Below the pieces are notes generated by a model. It saw nothing but the letters and a program-made list of their open reading frames with translations, did no database searches and had not been told where the DNA came from. Position numbers and translations under genes: made by a program. Below, in pieces: positions 7,968 to 30,273 of a stretch of 64,000 nt of DNA (the stretch's first letter is position 1; each line of letters starts with the position of its first letter). Source of the DNA: Candidatus Limnocylindrales bacterium (GTDB lineage: Bacteria; Moduliflexota; Moduliflexia; Moduliflexales; JAUQPW01); assembly GCA_035559535.1 (NCBI GenBank), contig DATMBG010000043.1, forward strand, positions 1 to 64,000. Reading direction: 5' to 3'.

Positions 7968-8588
7968 TCATTTTTCGTCATTCTGCGATAGCATAGCCGT
8001 ATCCCCCTGTGCTAAATTTATAAGGGCTTGCCAGATTTCTTTTTTTCCCTCTCCGGTTAAGGCCGAGAAGCTGATTAGGGATTCCCCCGGCCGGATCGGT
8101 AGAAGCTTTTCGATTTCTCTCAAACGGGAAATCCTCTGATTTTTAGATAACTTATCGGCTTTTGTAGCCACTATCAGGGTTTTTATCCTATGATAATCCA
8201 GCCATTCTTTCATGGTTTGATCGTCTGGGGTTGGAGCGTGGCGAATATCTAAGATAAGAACGATCCCCTTGAGGTTTTCTCTTTTTAAGAGATAAGTTTC
8301 TATCATGGATTGCCAGCCGGCTATCACTTCTTTCGGTGCCTTGGCATAACCATAACCCGGCAGATCTACAAAACATAACAGGTTATTGACGTTGAAAAAA
8401 TTGATGAGCCGGGTTTTACCGGGGGTACTGCTGGTCTTAGCAAGGCCTTTTTTTTCGACCAGGCTGTTTATCAAAGAGGATTTCCCTACATTGGATCTTC
8501 CCACAAAGGCAATTTCAGGTAGAGAGTGACGAGGATATTGGGAGGGGTTGGTAGCACTGACAATAAATGTGGCGGATTTGACCTTCAT
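7968..8588 (-). CDS. engB: Ribosome biogenesis GTPase YihA/EngB
   Basis: GRSNVGKSS, DLPGYG, TKADK; start may extend to 8645. Confidence 0.95.
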   Translation of the reverse strand: MKVKSATFIVSATNPSQYPRHSLPEIAFVGRSNVGKSSLINSLVEKKGLAKTSSTPGKTRLINFFNVNNLLCFVDLPGYGYAKAPKEVIAGWQSMIETYLLKRENLKGIVLILDIRHAPTPDDQTMKEWLDYHRIKTLIVATKADKLSKNQRISRLREIEKLLPIRPGESLISFSALTGEGKKEIWQALINLAQGDTAMLSQNDEK

Positions 8589-8666
8589 ACAGGCAGCGGG
8601 TAGTGGACAGTGAGCAGTTCCTCCTTCCTCTCCCTTACTGCCCATGGCTCACTGACCACGAATCTT

Positions 8667-9905
8667 TTATCCCGTCTTCTCATACAGCAACAAAGGTTTT
8701 TCCTTTTTAAAAATGACGTCTTCACTGATCACACACTCTTTAATTGTCTGTTGAGAGGGAAGTTCGTACATTAGATCAAGCATAATATCTTCCATGATGG
8801 CTCGTAATCCCCGTGCACCTGTTTCTCGTTTTAGAGCTTCTCTGGCAATAGCGGCCAGGGCGCCCTCGGTAAATTTGAGTTTGACCTTTTCAAACTCAAA
8901 CAGTTTTTGGTATTGTTTAACCAGGGAGTTTTTAGGTTCTTTCAAAACCCGGATTAAAGCTTCCTCATCCAGATCTTCCAAGGTGGCCACGATGGGCAAT
9001 CTTCCGACAAATTCCGGAATAAGGCCGTACTTGAGTAAATCGATGGGTTGAATATGTTTGAGGATATCTCCCATGGTTCGTTCATTTTTCTTTTGGATTT
9101 CTGCTGTAAAACCTATGGAAGATTTACCGATTCGGCGTTCGATAATTTTCTCTATGCCATGAAAAGCTCCCCCACAAATAAATAGAATATTGGTGGTATC
9201 CACCTGAATATACTCCTGATGAGGATGTTTTCGTCCTCCCTGGGGGGGTACGTTGGCGATGGTCCCCTCTAGAATTTTTAAAAGGGCCTGTTGAACTCCT
9301 TCTCCGGAGACATCCCGGGTTATGGAGGGACTATCGGATTTTCTGGATATTTTATCCACTTCATCCAGGTAAACGATCCCTCTTTCTGTTCGCTCTATGT
9401 CATAATCGGCAGCCTGGAGAAGCTTTACAATGATATTCTCTACATCTTCTCCCACATAGCCGGCTTCCGTGAGGGTGGTACAGTCGGCTATGGCAAAGGG
9501 AACATCTAGAATCCGGGCCAGAGTTTGGGCAAGCAACGTTTTTCCGGTACCTGTGGGACCCACTAAAAGTATATTACTCTTTTGGAGCTCTACATCCCCT
9601 ACATCCAGATCAGCCTCAATCCGCTTATAGTGGTTATAGACAGCCACAGAGAGAATTCTTTTGGCGTGTTCTTGTCCGATGACATAATCATCGAGAACTT
9701 TCTTGATATCTTTAGGTTTAGGAAGAGACTGGAAAGCCTCGCTGATTTCCTCGTTGGTTTCCTCTGCAATGATTTCATTACAAAGCTCCACGCACTCATT
9801 ACAGATATACACCGATGGACCTGCTATCAATTTTCGGACAGCTTCTTGAGGCTTCCCGCAAAAGGAACAAGCAAGATTTTTACCCCCACTTCGTGAAATA
9901 GGCAT
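8667..9905 (-). CDS. clpX: ATP-dependent Clp protease ATP-binding subunit
   Basis: CSFCGK zinc finger, [19 protein letters not shown] loop. Confidence 0.98.
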
Positions 9906-22461: not shown

Positions 22462-22695
22462 GGGTATGGGGGTGTGGGGGTTGGGAAAGTATGGGGGTGT
22501 GGGGGTGTGGGAGTATGGGAGTATAGAAGTATGGGGGTATGGTAGGGAAGTATGGAAGTATGGGAGTATAACCATTCTCTCACTTCCCCACTCCCACACT
22601 CCCATACTCCTACACCCCCATACTTTCTCACTTCCATACTCCTATACTCCCACACCCCCATACTTCCATACTCCCAAACCCTCACACCCCCACAC
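22462..22695. repeat. Inverted array of degenerate 8-mers (GTRTGGRR-like arm then complementary arm)
   Basis: G-rich arm about 22462-22568 and C-rich arm about 22585-22695; similar at 49141-49243. Confidence 0.85.
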
Positions 22696-24926: not shown

Positions 24927-24987
24927 TGAAAACCTTCAATAAAAATTTTTCTTGCATCGGGCAATTATCCCTTTTAAAATGAATTCT

Positions 24988-25758
24988 ATGGGTTTTAAAA
25001 AGACAGAAGCGTTTATAATCCGGTCTTTCGATATTAACGAGGCCGATAAAATCATTGTTTTTTATTCAAAATCCTTCGGTAAATTGAGGGGGATAGCCCG
25101 AGGGTCGAGAAAGTTGAAAAATCGGTTTGGAAGTAGTCTGGAGTTATTCACTCGGGTCCAGGTAAACCTCTTTGAAAAGGAAACTTATACCTTTCCTAAC
25201 ATCAGTCAGGCAGATATTATCGAGTCGTTTTCTGAACTGAGAGGAGATTTACGGAAACTCGCTTCAGCAGCCAGTCTGGTGGAGTTGGTAGATAAAGGTG
25301 TAGGTGAAAATGAAGAAAGTCCTCCGCTTTATGATTTAATCAGCCAGGCGTTGAGAGCGATGGTAGTATATCCCGAAGAGGAAATAGATAAGGTTCTTAT
25401 AACCTTTGAAATTAAATTCCTGACCCTGTCCGGCTATAGCCCCGTTTTGGATCGGTGTGCGCAATGCCGAAACCCCTTAAATACCCCTCGGGTTTTATTC
25501 AGCTTATCTAAAGGAGGTGGCCTTTGTAAAGGATGTACCGGGGAAGGAAACCCGGTTTTTCCAACCTCCTTACAAGCACTTCAGATCTTAAAACAACTTT
25601 TGAAGATGGATTTAGAAAAATGCCCTCGACTTAAGATCTCTGAAGAGACTCAAAGGGAAATCAAGATGCTTTTAAGGAGATGGTTGGATTTCTATCTGGA
25701 GGTTCCTCTAAAGGCTCCAGAATTTTTAGATTCCATAAGAAGATTAACCCAAGGTTAG
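24988..25758 (+). CDS. recO: DNA repair protein RecO
   Basis: EADKIIVFYS, GKLRGIARG, CAQC..CKGC zinc motif; upstream of glyQ. Confidence 0.92.
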   Translation: MGFKKTEAFIIRSFDINEADKIIVFYSKSFGKLRGIARGSRKLKNRFGSSLELFTRVQVNLFEKETYTFPNISQADIIESFSELRGDLRKLASAASLVELVDKGVGENEESPPLYDLISQALRAMVVYPEEEIDKVLITFEIKFLTLSGYSPVLDRCAQCRNPLNTPRVLFSLSKGGGLCKGCTGEGNPVFPTSLQALQILKQLLKMDLEKCPRLKISEETQREIKMLLRRWLDFYLEVPLKAPEFLDSIRRLTQG

Positions 25759-25771
25759 AAGTAATATTTGA

Positions 25772-25800
25772 TTGACAGCGTATAGGGATTGTGATACCTT
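25772..25800 (+). promoter_or_regulatory. Sigma70-type promoter for the ubiquitin-like operon
   Basis: TTGACA-17 bp-TACCTT with TG extension; RBS AAGGAGGT near 25847. Confidence 0.5.
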
Positions 25801-25860
25801 TAGAATAGGCCTTGACGATTTGGTAATAGGTTTATTCTTCAAAATTAAGGAGGTACCTGT

Positions 25861-26154
25861 ATGCAAAAGGTAATCGATGATGAAAGATCCTATACCCATC
25901 CCTTTGACCCTCTGAGAGAATCTGAGTCCTCTGCCGGGAGTACTTATACCATCATTCATAATGGTAAGCGGGTTGAAGTACCCGAATCCATAAAGACCGT
26001 TGGCCAGCTCAAGGAATTTTTAGGAGTTCCGGAAGATTATACTGTTACGGAATATACCGGTAATTCTACTTCTAAGCTACTGACTGATAACTTTAGTACG
26101 GAGAAATTAAAAGGCGTAAAAATCGCCACCAATCCCCAAGTGATCTCGGGTTAA
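25861..26154 (+). CDS. Ubiquitin-like (beta-grasp) protein ending in Gly
   Basis: YTIIHNGKRVEV..TVGQLKEFLGVP pattern; C-terminus NPQVISG; first gene before E2/JAB/E1. Confidence 0.7.
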   Translation: MQKVIDDERSYTHPFDPLRESESSAGSTYTIIHNGKRVEVPESIKTVGQLKEFLGVPEDYTVTEYTGNSTSKLLTDNFSTEKLKGVKIATNPQVISG

Positions 26155-26272
26155 ACAGCTTGATACTTATACGGTTAAAGACCCTCTATAGCGTTAACCT
26201 TTCAAAGGTCATAAACCTTTGAAAGGTTAATGTGGATTGTAAGGCTGTTGCACAGTCTTGAGGGGTTGTGCT

Positions 26273-26812
26273 GTGTTTAAACTGTTTAACTGGTATAAAC
26301 AAAACGTTGAGGAGATCAATCGTCAGTATCTTGAATTGATTAGACTCATAGGTACCGAAGAGTGCTTCCGTTTTTCTCATCCCATTGAATTACCGGCGTA
26401 CGAGACCAAAGGGATCTATGCCATGGCGGATGTACGTACTTCCAAAGATCAGAAGGGTTCTTATATCGAGGGGTTTGATTACATCTATCTCTATAACTGG
26501 AAATTGCCTGCGGAGTTGGCTCTTACCTGTGGAAAAGAAAGCCCAGTTACCCATGCACTGATAGAGCTACCGGTTACAGCCGGAAATAAGGGGGCCGTCA
26601 AAAATTACCTCATGCATATCGAAGAGGGGTTTAGCCGGCTTCTAGGGGAACATTATTTTCCTGCAACTTCTCGTCAGTCCCATCATGGAGACCTGGGATG
26701 GTGTTGGTCTTGTTTCCATGTCTATGCCGATGTGACCCTGGCGGAATATGTACGTGCAGCCTGGCATTGGTTCGCAAGACAGGCAGAGAAAACGAGAAAG
26801 AGATGGTGGTAG
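26273..26812 (+). CDS. Prokaryotic E2/UBC-like protein
   Basis: YIYLYNWKLP, ALIELP, GWCWSCFH followed by helix TLAEYV; GTG start after GAGGGG; operon context. Confidence 0.6.
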   Translation: MFKLFNWYKQNVEEINRQYLELIRLIGTEECFRFSHPIELPAYETKGIYAMADVRTSKDQKGSYIEGFDYIYLYNWKLPAELALTCGKESPVTHALIELPVTAGNKGAVKNYLMHIEEGFSRLLGEHYFPATSRQSHHGDLGWCWSCFHVYADVTLAEYVRAAWHWFARQAEKTRKRWW

Positions 26813-26813
26813 T

Positions 26814-27251
26814 GTGGTCCTTAAAATCTCAAGGGCCGATCTGGCTTTCCTTAAAAAGGCGCTTCGGTCACCAAAGGAAAAAGCTTACCTGGGTGCTGTA
26901 TCTAAAGAATTTAAACTGATTGAAATTTTAAAAGATACGAAAATCCAGCATAACGGACTTTTCCATGTTGTTGTAGACCCAGAACAGTGTGGTTCTTACC
27001 TCCAGTGGGTCCACGCTCAAGGATATTATCTGTTCCTTTTTCATACCCATCCCCTTTCTAAAAGAGCCAGATACTCCAGAATAGATAATACTTATCATCC
27101 CCAACTGGCTCGATACGGATTCTACGATAAAGAGGGTAATTATATCCAAAACAATGCTCTTGTTCGACTGTTATTTTCACGTACAGAATATCAGGCCGGG
27201 ATTTATTTAAAGGAAACCTATCAACCGGTAAGGATCAAAGTAGTGAACTAA
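26814..27251 (+). CDS. JAB/MPN (JAMM) metallopeptidase, deubiquitinase-like
   Basis: N-terminal Glu (PKE) and FHTHPLSKRARYSRID = HxH-x7-S-x2-D; GTG start next to the E2 stop. Confidence 0.85.
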   Translation: MVLKISRADLAFLKKALRSPKEKAYLGAVSKEFKLIEILKDTKIQHNGLFHVVVDPEQCGSYLQWVHAQGYYLFLFHTHPLSKRARYSRIDNTYHPQLARYGFYDKEGNYIQNNALVRLLFSRTEYQAGIYLKETYQPVRIKVVN

Positions 27252-27284
27252 TACACGGTTTACATAGTTTTGGCTTAGCGTTTA

Positions 27285-27346
27285 AGGGGCCTTCACCCCC
27301 GACCCCTCTCCCACGCTGTGGGAGAAGGGCGTTGGAGAGTGAAGGC
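27285..27346. repeat. REP-like hairpin (ccctcacccc...ccctctccc...gggagaggg family)
   Basis: Similar to 46227-46305; related elements near 13460-13515 and 57845-57890. Confidence 0.7.
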
Positions 27347-27375
27347 CGTCCTGGGAGGTCAAAATTAAGTAAATC

Positions 27376-28212
27376 GTGTACCGATCAACGCAGGGGTGTA
27401 AGGGTATAGAGATACGGAAACCAGGTAACAATGTTGCTACCTCCCCTTCTCTAGGCCCTTGCATCGAGATTAATTTGAATTTATTATTAGTTGGCCTTGG
27501 TGGAAATGGCTGGGCGCTGATGCGAAAATTAATGTCCTGGGAAAATATTGAGGTGGCCGTCATAGAACCCGATCAAATAGAATCCTCTAATCTCCCCAGG
27601 CTGATAGGCGCTACAGACCAACATGTGGGGTTTTATAAAACAGAAGCTTTCGAAGCCATATTCGGATATCGATTTCTGAAAAAAATTCAAAGTAAAGTCC
27701 AGGATTGCACGGAGAATTTTCAAGATTATGAGGTTATCGTTGCCTGTGTCGATAATAATGAAACCCGGCAATATCTGGCTATGGCTGGTCTTTACTTTAA
27801 GGTGCCCCTCTTTGACCTGGGGGCCGGAATCGTCATTCGAAATGGACAGGTCATCTTCAAGGGAGGCCAGATACGAATCCAACTCCCCGGAGAAGAATGC
27901 CTTTTCTGTATGGGGTTACCCTTACCCGTTTCCGACAGGAAAAAGGCTTTACGTCGAGCAGCCGGTTACCTGGATACCGGGGATCCCCAAGAAGAAATCC
28001 ACCGGAATCGAGGAGAGGAAATTTTAGCTATCAACGAAGCTCTGGTTGCACTGGCTCTGCCGGAGATCTTAACTTATCTGGATAAGGGTACGGTAACCAG
28101 CAAATATATTCGATTAAACTTGATCCAGAACCAGCAGGAGTTTATTCAAACAACGATCGTGCCCAATTGTATTTGTCAGGTCGAGAAACAGAACAAGGTG
28201 TATATCTCATAG
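27376..28212 (+). CDS. ThiF/E1-like adenylyltransferase
   Basis: LLLVGLGGNG, EPDQIESSNLPR, ACVDNNETR, CLFC, C-terminal CIC; start uncertain (GTG 27376 or TTG 27475). Confidence 0.88.
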   Translation: MYRSTQGCKGIEIRKPGNNVATSPSLGPCIEINLNLLLVGLGGNGWALMRKLMSWENIEVAVIEPDQIESSNLPRLIGATDQHVGFYKTEAFEAIFGYRFLKKIQSKVQDCTENFQDYEVIVACVDNNETRQYLAMAGLYFKVPLFDLGAGIVIRNGQVIFKGGQIRIQLPGEECLFCMGLPLPVSDRKKALRRAAGYLDTGDPQEEIHRNRGEEILAINEALVALALPEILTYLDKGTVTSKYIRLNLIQNQQEFIQTTIVPNCICQVEKQNKVYIS

Positions 28213-28297
28213 AAGTTAAAAGTCGGAAAATCAGAAACCGGGAGCCAGAAGTCAGAAGTTAAAAGCTTTTCCTTCCGACTCCGGACTCCTCTTCAGG

Positions 28298-29188
28298 ATG
28301 ACTTTTCAAGAGGTTATTCTAACACTCGAGCGATTCTGGGCTAATAAAGGGTGTATCCTCCTACAACCCTACGATATGGAAGTAGGAGCAGGAACCTGTC
28401 ATCCGGCCACCCTGCTTCGATGCCTCGGTCCAGAACCCTGGAATGTGGCCTATGTACAACCGTCTCGTAGACCCACGGACGGTCGTTATGGGGAGAATCC
28501 CAATCGCCTCCAACACTATTACCAATATCAAGTCCTGATGAAACCCTCTCCACCTAATCTCCAGGACCTTTATTTGGAGAGTTTATTCAATCTGGGCATT
28601 GATCCCCTGGAACACGATATCCGGTTTGTGGAAGATGACTGGGAAAACCCAACCCTGGGAGCCTGGGGACTGGGTTGGGAGGTCTGGCTGGATGGGATGG
28701 AAATTACCCAGTTTACCTATTTTCAACAGGCGGGCGGCATCGATCTTTTCCCTATTTCGGGTGAAATTACCTACGGATTGGAACGTATCGCCATGTATTT
28801 ACAAAAAGTTGATAATGTATTTGACTTAATATGGACGCCGGGTATTAAATATGGAGATGTTCATCATCAAGGTGAAGTGGAGTACTCCCGATATAATTTT
28901 GAAGTCGCCGATGTGGATATGCTGTTTCGCTTGTTTGAGATGTATGAGCGGGAAGCTCTGCGAGCTCTGGACAGAAAAATAGTTCTGGCCGCTTATGATT
29001 ACTGTCTGAAATGCTCTCATACGTTCAATCTTCTGGAAGCAAGGGGAGCCATAAGTGTTACAGAACGAACCGGATTCATCGCGCGAGTTCGAAATATTAC
29101 GAAAATGTGTGCCGAAGCTTACCTCAAACAACGGGAAGAAATGGGATTTCCTTTGTGTAAGTCGAAGGAAAAGCAGGTGGTTCATTAA
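28298..29188 (+). CDS. glyQ: Glycine--tRNA ligase alpha subunit
   Basis: [38 protein letters not shown]. Confidence 0.98.
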
Positions 29189-29220
29189 TCCCTTTCTCAA
29201 CCCTTTTCTCCATCCAGATT

Positions 29221-30273
29221 ATGGGAAAGACAGGTGGGTTGAGTAGCAAATTGTTCATCCTGGCCATAGTGGTTTCACTTTATGGTTGTGGAGATTTCGA
29301 GAGTAGCCCGACTGAAACCGAACCCCTAAACGGAATAGGTACCTTGAACGGCCGAATTATCACCGATGCCGGAACTCAACTCTCTCAGGCTACTTGGTTG
29401 GAGAAAATATTTGCATGGGCCTTTACCTTTATATATCCCGCCGAGGCCGGAATCAATACAAGTAACACGGTGGGAGTTCCCGGCCTCCTGGTCCTGTTGC
29501 TGGATGAAAGAAATAATGAAATAAGTACCACGGTTACCGGGCAAAACGGTGAATTCGTTTTTATGGGTATCCCCTTTGGAGATTTCATCGTAAGGGTCAT
29601 GCAGGCCTCTAAAAATATCGACTTCCAGTTCGGAGTTAATATAACTCCTAACAAACCAGATCATTCCATCCTTTGTAAAATCGAAAAAATAAACGGAGAG
29701 AAAAACGTGATTGGAGAGGTTAACGGGGTCCCGGTTACCATCCATAATAACCTTACAGGGTCCCCCTTTTCGCTTCCTATTCCGGCTCCGGCTGTTGCTA
29801 CGCCCACACCAACTCCTCAAATGGTTCTATCCAATCCTTCAACTTCAGTCCGACTGGAACCCACTCCAACCCCTTATCGTTCCGAGTCAGTTCCCACACC
29901 GACTCCCTATCCGGCCACACCAAGCCCTATACCAACCTCCACGCCGACCCCAACACCGTCTCTCTCCACGCCGACCCCAACCCCTACCCCAACTTCCAAT
30001 GCAACTTCCACACCGACTCCCTATCTGGCTGCACCAAGCCCTACACCAACCTCCACACCTACCCCAACACCGTCTCTCTCCACACCGACCCCAACTTCCA
30101 ATTTAACTCCTACGCCGACCCCGACCCCTTCGGCAACTCCAACGCCTGATGTGACGCCCACGTCTACCCCGACCCCTTCGGCAACCCTAATGCCTAAAGT
30201 AACTCCCACCCCTACCTCGACCGTGGTTCCGCCCTTAAAGCGAATATTAACCGGAAATCAACAGAATAAATAA
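29221..30273 (+). CDS. Lipoprotein with prealbumin-like/carboxypeptidase-regulatory domain and Pro/Thr-rich tail
   Basis: SLYGC lipobox; [19 protein letters not shown]; duplicated PT-rich units near 29895-30095. Confidence 0.7.

Follow-up and report, generated by a model that had tools for sequence, protein, structure and literature searches.

A ubiquitin-like cassette between recO and glyQ of a Candidatus Limnocylindrales bacterium, a probable cysteine-type relative of Bub

Four constrained genes at a fixed place

A stretch of 64,000 nucleotides from a Candidatus Limnocylindrales bacterium (GTDB phylum Moduliflexota; assembly GCA_035559535.1, contig DATMBG010000043.1, positions 1 to 64,000 of the forward strand; here called the window) carries four co-directional open reading frames (ORFs) on the plus strand at 25861-28212, between recO and glyQ. 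In order, they encode a ubiquitin-like protein (Ubl, ORF1), a divergent E2-like protein (ORF2), a JAB/JAMM metallopeptidase (ORF3) and a minimal E1 of the ThiF fold (ORF4). Each domain has an ORF of its own, which ends in a stop codon and is set off from the next by a spacer (Table 1). A preliminary description of this DNA, made from the sequence alone, had placed four ORFs between recO and glyQ and had taken them for a divergent, minimal protein-conjugation system of the order Ubl-E2-JAB-E1. The genes lie where it placed them, and a conjugation cassette of this type, separate from sulfur-carrier metabolism, is the best reading. We consider the locus to be probably a four-gene Ubl protein-conjugation system related to Bub (formerly 6E), of an unfused and cysteine-type form and without BubE.

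The four ORFs are constrained genes under purifying selection and change no faster than their housekeeping neighbours. This follows from the ratios of nonsynonymous to synonymous substitution rates (dN/dS) against L008, a contig of a metagenome-assembled genome, which are 0.04 for ORF1, 0.019 for ORF2, 0.11 for ORF3 and 0.15 for ORF4 (flanking genes: recO 0.185, glyQ 0.054). It follows likewise from the comparison with L009, a metagenome contig, in which ORF2 is 88% and recO 72% identical to the window. Within its small clade the operon is fixed in its genomic place. L008 and L009, the two relatives that span both sides, have it flanked by acs and recO and by glyQ, and in G001, the other genome of the genus, it stands directly beside recO (80871-81674; ORF2 at 79817-80353). 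A synteny comparison in relatives had been proposed in the preliminary description, and it gave these same flanks. The phylum is represented by nine species genomes in the collection used. In the sister family recO does not lie within 1.5 kb of glyQ (4/4 genomes), so that there is no empty site with which to compare the possible insertion into a housekeeping locus that the preliminary description had inferred. The GC content of the operon (0.40-0.47) is not distinct from that of its flanks.

Table 1. Features of the operon and its immediate surroundings in the window, and the paralogous operon of the same genome
Feature	Position	Strand	Basis or remark
recO	24952-25758		RecO_N and RecO_C domains
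Possible promoter stretch with TTGACA (putative)	25772..25806	+	kept in 4/4 aligned loci including distant L009
Shine-Dalgarno AAGGAGG of ORF1	25847..25853	+	read from sequence; invariant in 4/4 loci
ORF1, Ubl, 97 aa	25861..26154	+	beta-grasp prediction, orthologues
Hairpin, perfect 16-bp inverted repeat, 5-nt loop	26194..26230	+	between Ubl and E2-like genes
ORF2, divergent E2-like, 179 aa	26273..26812	+	indirect sequence evidence
ORF3, JAB/JAMM metallopeptidase, ~145 aa	26814..27251	+	JAMM residues
Dispersed repeat, GC-rich palindromic, REP/MITE-like, 70 nt	27283..27352	.	JAB-E1 spacer; inverted arms
ORF4, minimal E1, ThiF fold, ~245 aa	27475..28212	+	Pfam ThiF, alignment
glyQ	28298-29188		tRNA-synt_2e, 504 bits
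Second Ubl-E2-E1 operon, without JAB (L015)	contig C48 of the same genome (G000): 510-2579	minus	also in G001 (L014)

The four proteins and a paralogous set

ORF1 ends in ..VISG, with Gly97 directly before the stop codon, and the ..ISG terminus is invariant in all four orthologues. Its last 70 residues are nearly invariant. Residues ~1-27 vary between sequences and are modelled with low confidence or as disordered, and residues 28-92 form the predicted beta-grasp core. Single-beta-grasp Ubls with disordered N-terminal parts have been described for Bil and Bub operons (10.1101/2024.11.21.623966). An AlphaFold2 model from the alignment of four sequences has a mean predicted local distance difference test (pLDDT) of 74.9, with values of 76-90 in the blocks of residues 31-90, and shows the topology strand-strand-helix-strand-strand-(helix)-strand. 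Foldseek ranks bacterial multi-ubiquitin domain proteins highest (8u38, 9d5b, 9d5a and 9cd2, E ~2e-3), ahead of ubiquitin variants, SUMO and NEDD8. VIA-align places the Citrobacter multi-ubiquitin protein BubA first (9d59_A, Z 9.2, root mean square deviation 3.4, 80 aligned), and all 50 matches listed are beta-grasp domains. According to its modelled fold, ORF1 is a beta-grasp ubiquitin-like modifier, structurally closest to the Ubls of Bub and Bil. The preliminary description had called it a beta-grasp-like protein ending in Gly; the model, the terminus and the Foldseek search, which it had suggested as a check, all agree with this.

In ORF3 the residues E22, H77, H79, S88 and D91 are invariant in 8/8 aligned JABs, an alignment made of standalone JABs and of the JAB halves of BubCD-like fusions. 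The motif is complete and corresponds to E28, H91, H93 and D104, which are given as the JAMM residues of BubCD (PMC11601596). The Pfam Prok-JAB model scores 11.9 bits on ORF3 (E 0.21) against a cut-off of 25, and a homologue search returned two close clusters only. Judged from its full motif, ORF3 is a JAB/JAMM metallopeptidase, which is in line with the intact JAMM noted before.

ORF4, described earlier as a ThiF/E1 protein, exceeds the cut-off of Pfam ThiF clearly (PF00899, 59.8 bits against 28.1, E 3e-16). The expected elements are intact: GLGGNG, D33, N39/R42, K55, D93/R98 and the zinc motifs (CxxC plus C.C). In an alignment of 11 E1 sequences G7, G10, G12, D33, N39, R42, K55, D93, R98, P111, Y165 and C234 are invariant throughout. 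The crossover loop is long and free of Cys, and contains Tyr165. Its relation to Bub was read through locus L017, whose JAB-E1 fusion aligns to Citrobacter BubCD (9ea4_A) with E 1.4e-70. With a chain offset of +2 (E30 of the 9ea4 chain is E28 in the paper), the tyrosine of 'ERGY' in this alignment corresponds to Y370 and the arginine of 'NLNR' to R227, and the tyrosine of 'KDKY' of L017 sits at Y370. The Y370 and R227 columns of BubCD are Y165 and R42 of the window E1. For BubCD, Y370F is reported to abolish conjugation and R227A to reduce it (PMC11601596).

A Ubl, an E1 and a JAB would also suit a sulfur-carrier module, in which the E1 thiocarboxylates ORF1 for biosynthesis and the JAB trims or recycles the carrier. 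CysO/Mec+ and QbsE/QbsD are sulfur-carrier systems of this kind. A small beta-grasp protein with C-terminal Gly, a ThiF-fold enzyme and a JAMM peptidase nearby are the classical make-up of such modules, and the best named matches of ORF4 are NCBIfam MoeB and ThiF (E 4e-9 to 3e-8, far under the cut-offs). We hold this explanation to be very unlikely, however. ORF1 ends in a single Gly, preceded by Ser and not by a second Gly, and has no match at E <= 1 to the ThiS families of Pfam; its best structural matches are conjugating Ubls and not ThiS or MoaD. The window E1 lacks both a crossover-loop Cys and a rhodanese domain, and the operon has no sulfur-transfer partner genes and does have an E2-like gene. 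Genes for thiamine, molybdopterin or cysteine biosynthesis do not adjoin it, as the preliminary description had observed. Elsewhere the genome has six ThiS-family (PF02597) genes, none of which is ORF1 or the second Ubl described below, two canonical ThiF/MoeB proteins and one canonical Prok-JAB, whose gene adjoins one of the ThiF/MoeB genes. One of these canonical E1s has a short crossover loop with Cys; the other has TGA there.

The latter E1 is an observation in its own right. It lies on the minus strand of contig C42 (~8400-9800), is of the rhodanese-ThiF/MoeZ type and has the in-frame TGA at the place expected for the catalytic Cys of the crossover loop (..AELAPT*DEAGVLG..), with a ThiS gene and the canonical Prok-JAB adjoining. 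From this sequence it may be a selenocysteine E1.

The link of ORF2 to known E2 proteins runs through the second operon of the genome, on contig C48. It encodes a Ubl of 71 residues ending in ..SFASG (Ubl2), a protein of 138 residues with GWCWICVH, and an E1 of 275 residues that is 34% identical to ORF4 and has an N-terminal helix together with the tyrosine loop. Upstream lies a gene for a hydrophobic protein of 147 residues, which has no Pfam match and is by eye a probable membrane protein. The operon also adjoins a gene read by eye as that of an ammonium transporter. The preliminary description had called the system minimal and free of accessory genes; this is true for the locus in the window, and the genome as a whole has this second Ubl-E2-E1 set in addition. 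The 138-residue protein matches Pfam Prok-E2_E with E 0.0019 and aligns by hhalign to six Prok-E2_E members with a probability of 94.3% (E 1e-7, 101 columns). A hidden Markov model (HMM) of eight unrelated members from other phyla ranks it best of the 27,640 ORFs of the genome (E 1.1e-5). In the ESM Atlas it scores 0.95 with 218 shared features, and 24 of the 30 matches listed carry PF14462. By these comparisons it is an E2 of the Prok-E2_E (BubB-type) family.

ORF2 and this paralogue are connected in several ways. BLASTP aligns them with E 9e-5 (27% identity over 93 residues) and hhalign with E 8.9e-6 over 23 columns. The paralogue is the first non-self phmmer match of ORF2 in the genome, and their Smith-Waterman score, 65, was equalled or exceeded in 2 of 2000 shuffles. 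The common segment comprises 24 residues (HYF...GWCW.C.H) and is the active-site stretch. The pattern GWCW.C.H, and even CW.C.H, is found in two of the 27,640 ORFs, namely ORF2 and the paralogue. Against the family plus the paralogues ORF2 is co-linear over 92 columns (hhalign, E 0.0037). The position of BubB is fixed by the E2 of L017, which aligns to Citrobacter BubB (9eae_C) with E 2e-25, the Ser and His of 'QRWSRH' being S333 and H335. In the resulting alignment of 13 sequences W143 of ORF2 is invariant, Cys147 falls on the Ser333 column and His149 on the His335 column, and the Asp299 column of BubB has Val. Both residues belong to a stretch, SHHGDLGWCWSCFH, that is invariant in ORF2, and we propose Cys147 as the nucleophile and His149 as its partner. 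Because of the motif, the co-linear alignment and these column assignments, we hold ORF2 for a very divergent E2 of the Prok-E2_E (BubB-type) family, and we think this quite probable.

Several results weigh against the reading of the locus as a Bub-related conjugation system. ORF2 matches no model of Pfam, NCBIfam or PADLOC. HMMs of the family, built with or without the paralogues, do not find it at E <= 10, and its profile is not significant against six Prok-E2_E members (probability 0.27%, E 0.22). The phmmer E-value of the paralogue is only 0.19, and BLASTP ranks the paralogue fourth among the ORFs of the genome. When the motif of eight residues is masked the similarity vanishes, and 261 of 2000 shuffles reach the score. 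The AlphaFold2 model of ORF2 from three sequences is poor (pLDDT 45.7); a wide structure search with it gave RNA polymerase alpha as the top match (Z 7.6) and listed no UBC fold, a result that is meaningless for such a poor model. As to the E1, the N-terminal R-[NQ] helix carried by the other aligned E1s is missing from all three window-type sequences, so that the activity of ORF4 is not assured. An E1 tree of 14 rows (one canonical E1 left out for its in-frame TGA) is star-like with long branches and has no resolved placement. The E2-like character ascribed to ORF2 in the preliminary description has received an indirect sequence link through the paralogue; the fold side, with a poor model and no UBC match, did not bear it out.

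ORF2 is isolated in wider searches as well. An exhaustive phmmer search of 1.8 billion representatives returned its own cluster and two low-complexity repeat matches, and a word-based homologue search two close clusters only. A profile search of the PDB found nothing relevant. The best score in the ESM Atlas is 0.87, to unrelated clusters, and a tblastn search of plasmids matched neither ORF2 nor the paralogue E2. The 13-member family alignment, used as a profile, brought no further member to light in the 401 genomes sampled.

These results could be explained if the system worked independently of an E2. ORF1, the E1 and the JAB would then be a tagging or activation module like SAMP or TtuB, and ORF2 an unrelated lineage-specific partner (a target, an adaptor or a redox CxxC protein) that by common descent shares a short non-E2 segment with the paralogue. 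The failure of every family model, a model that is not UBC-like, the confinement of the similarity to 24 residues and the fact that W-C-W-S-C is also a CxxC pattern would fit this explanation. We consider it unlikely nonetheless, since the common segment coincides with the active-site stretch of a clear Prok-E2_E protein, the co-linearity extends well beyond it, and the Ser and His columns of BubB hold Cys147 and His149. In gene order ORF2 stands where an E2 is expected, after the Ubl gene and before those of the JAB and the E1, as the E2s of two loci from other genomes do (L038 and L036, see below), and of the two cysteines of the CxxC pattern the second is kept in Cys-type relatives (GWYWYCVG, GWKWYCVY), the first not. 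For this same lack of conservation of the first Cys, we rejected HH..CxxC.H of ORF2 as a zinc site. We also considered whether the N-terminal helix of ORF2 (..EINRQYLELIRLIG..) might stand in for the R-[NQ] helix that the E1 lacks at its N-terminus. This idea was dropped, because the same helix pattern recurs in the paralogue and the L020 E2 (..KTEIELCEKIYG.., ..LKEIELLRAKY..), where it is simply the usual first helix.

Signals and neighbours of the operon

The preliminary description had given the operon its own promoter and ribosome-binding site. The AAGGAGG stands 7 nt before the ATG of ORF1 and, as listed in Table 1, does not vary among the aligned loci. A scan of 25600-28400 for sigma-70-like consensus sites called none on the plus strand. 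An own promoter upstream of ORF1 is nevertheless possible, because the TTGACA stretch before it is conserved even in the most distant relative.

The hairpin that follows ORF1 is kept in the window, L008 and G001, and its sequence differs in L009; it is possibly an attenuator or a processing site. A second hairpin (26250-26271) overlies the ribosome-binding site of ORF2. The start of ORF2 was reassigned to the GTG at 26273, which gives the 179 residues of the matching database cluster. For ORF3 the most likely start is the GTG at 26814 (145 residues), 2 nt past the ORF2 stop. The dispersed repeat after ORF3 has 42 matches in the genome and is present in the window and L008 and absent from L009. 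ORF4 most likely starts at the TTG at 27475 (245 residues), because its relatives start there (247 and 244 residues) and because a frame-shifting indel distinguishes the window from L008 in the stretch upstream; in L009 this stretch is unrelated.

Further neighbours are an isochorismatase-family gene, an acetyl-CoA synthetase gene (acs), and genes for a PT-rich protein, a BrkB/YihY-family membrane protein and a periplasmic binding protein. Between the isochorismatase-family gene and acs, at 22464-22695, there are two adjacent arrays of 8-nt tandem repeats, (GTATGGGA) with ~13.5 copies and (CACTCCCA) with ~14 copies, which are mutual reverse complements. Within 28298-30273 the gene after glyQ encodes the PT-repeat-rich protein, which has 350 residues and is lipoprotein-like by eye only, and the GC skew falls sharply across the repeat region. 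The ORF list up to 32680 contains no long glyS-like ORF after glyQ; no search aimed at glyS was made.

Relation to Bub and other systems

The system with which the locus has most in common is type I Bub (formerly 6E.1/DUF6527), with BubAB, BubCD and BubE, as known from Citrobacter sp. RHBSTW-00271 (9ea4, 9eae). According to the account of 2024, the Bub pathways are the only Ubl cascades without any catalytic cysteine and their biological role is unknown; BubE is encoded in every Bub operon, and the BubB serine is invariant (PMC11601596). The cysteine is also described as lacking from the 6e E2-like domains (Iyer et al. 2006, PMC1779556). The order of domains (Ubl, E2, JAMM, E1) is the same in the window. 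So are the long Cys-free crossover loop of the E1, with Tyr at Y370 and R42 at R227, and a Ubl that ends in a single Gly and has Citrobacter BubA as its best structural match. The E2 family, Prok-E2_E, is probably the same too, ORF2 being tied to it indirectly by way of the paralogue, and the His two positions after the nucleophile column is kept. On the other hand, the window has four separate genes, without Ubl-E2 or JAB-E1 fusion. The nucleophile column of the E2 is Cys147 in ORF2 and Ser (S333) in BubB, and the Asp299 column differs as given above. The window E1 has no N-terminal helix, there is no CapH/CapP or CapW regulator, and the surroundings are those of a fixed housekeeping locus, not of a mobile element. 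DUF6527/BubE (PF20137) has no match at E <= 1 anywhere in the genome, whose completeness is 95.8%. We read the operon as an unfused, cysteine-type variant that is related to Bub and distinct from type I.

The preliminary description had compared the order of the genes to that of Bil and Bub alike. The order does agree with both, and of the two it is Bub that lies closest, since the Bil models do not fit. That the locus is a Bil-type (BilABCD) anti-phage system is therefore the most improbable of the explanations considered. Bil, too, has four unfused genes arranged as Ubl, E2, JAB and E1, and the PADLOC models for E1-E2 reach 1.8e-5 on the Rossmann part of the protein, with E 0.024 for BilD. 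By contrast, BilA, BilB and BilC have no match among ORF1-3 at E <= 1, which was the outcome of the PADLOC comparison suggested beforehand. In the published account the Bil E2 has a catalytic Cys and works without E3, and the BilD E1 has the domains IAD-AAD-CYS (PMC11601596). BilD is a large E1 with a catalytic Cys domain, whereas the window E1 has 245 residues, a single adenylation domain and no Cys domain. Moreover, no defence island surrounds the locus, and its rate of change is like that of the housekeeping genes beside it.

Relatives of Bub that are of the Cys type or unfused also occur outside this phylum. Prok-E2_E is found in 8 of the 401 sampled genomes, and of these loci five are Bub-like with JAB-E1 fusions and three are not. 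L038 has unfused Ubl, E2, JAB and E1 genes in the order of the window, next to a pair of helix-turn-helix and M78 genes. L036 (G060:C140) is unfused too, with a Cys-type E2 (GWYWYCVG) and a tyrosine-bearing E1, beside an NYN gene and a CRISPR-associated (Cas_APE2256) gene. L037 joins a Cys-type E2 to a JAB-E1 fusion. Four more NYN-linked Cys-type loci (L040-L043) were found among 301 genomes of the phylum of L036. The operons of L036 and L040-L043 encode an NYN nuclease-like protein, a coiled-coil protein, a Ubl (..KIVKG, in some cases followed by a short tail) and a family-E E2 with GWYWYCVG; JAB and tyrosine-loop E1 of this type were read in L036 only. Cys occupies the nucleophile column of the E2 in L036, L037 and L040-L043. 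The contigs of L036-L038 showed no DUF6527. L036 and L038 resemble the window in the order of separate genes and in the tyrosine loop of the E1. The operons of L038, L036 and L040-L043 differ in that their E2s are at or near the Pfam cut-off (25.2 and 24.6 bits), where ORF2 has no match, in that their context is defence-like (NYN, CRISPR-associated, CapH/CapP-like) and in that their E1s keep the N-terminal helix. We found no published description of unfused or Cys-type Prok-E2_E operons in a literature that comprised two preprints of 2024 and passing mentions of Bub, the supplementary operon tables of the preprints lying outside its scope.

As a Bub-related conjugation system the locus would work as follows. 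ORF1 would be ready for use without processing, its last residue being Gly97. The E1, probably a homodimer like other minimal E1s, would adenylate Gly97 with ATP. The Ubl would then pass to Tyr165 of the E1 as an oxyester, as with Y370 of BubCD, or directly from the adenylate to the E2. On ORF2 it would be held as a thioester of Cys147, with help from His149, and from there be transferred to lysines of target proteins without an E3. The JAMM peptidase ORF3 would remove the tag; deconjugation is its likely job because the Ubl needs no trimming. The fixed position, the slow change and the second paralogous Ubl-E2-E1 set suggest a cellular role, regulatory or in stress, rather than that of a mobile anti-phage island. 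A more specific version, which we put forward tentatively and regard as rather doubtful, is a hybrid cascade from a Tyr oxyester on the E1 to a Cys thioester on the E2, intermediate between the classical thioester cascade of ubiquitination and the all-oxyester cascade of Bub. Such a cascade would be vertically inherited and not serve defence, and the two paralogous sets may share the JAMM peptidase.

In this locus an E1 of the Bub tyrosine type stands beside an E2-like protein with Cys at the Bub serine position, a combination that would make the switch between thioester and oxyester directly testable. With its separate small genes, without an accessory protease and at a stable position, it is a compact system for reconstitution. 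The occurrence of Cys-type relatives beside NYN and CRISPR-associated genes in another phylum suggests a Bub-related family that extends beyond the two types described so far. The housekeeping-like conservation of the operon and its duplication argue that some bacterial Ubl tagging serves the cell and not phage defence.

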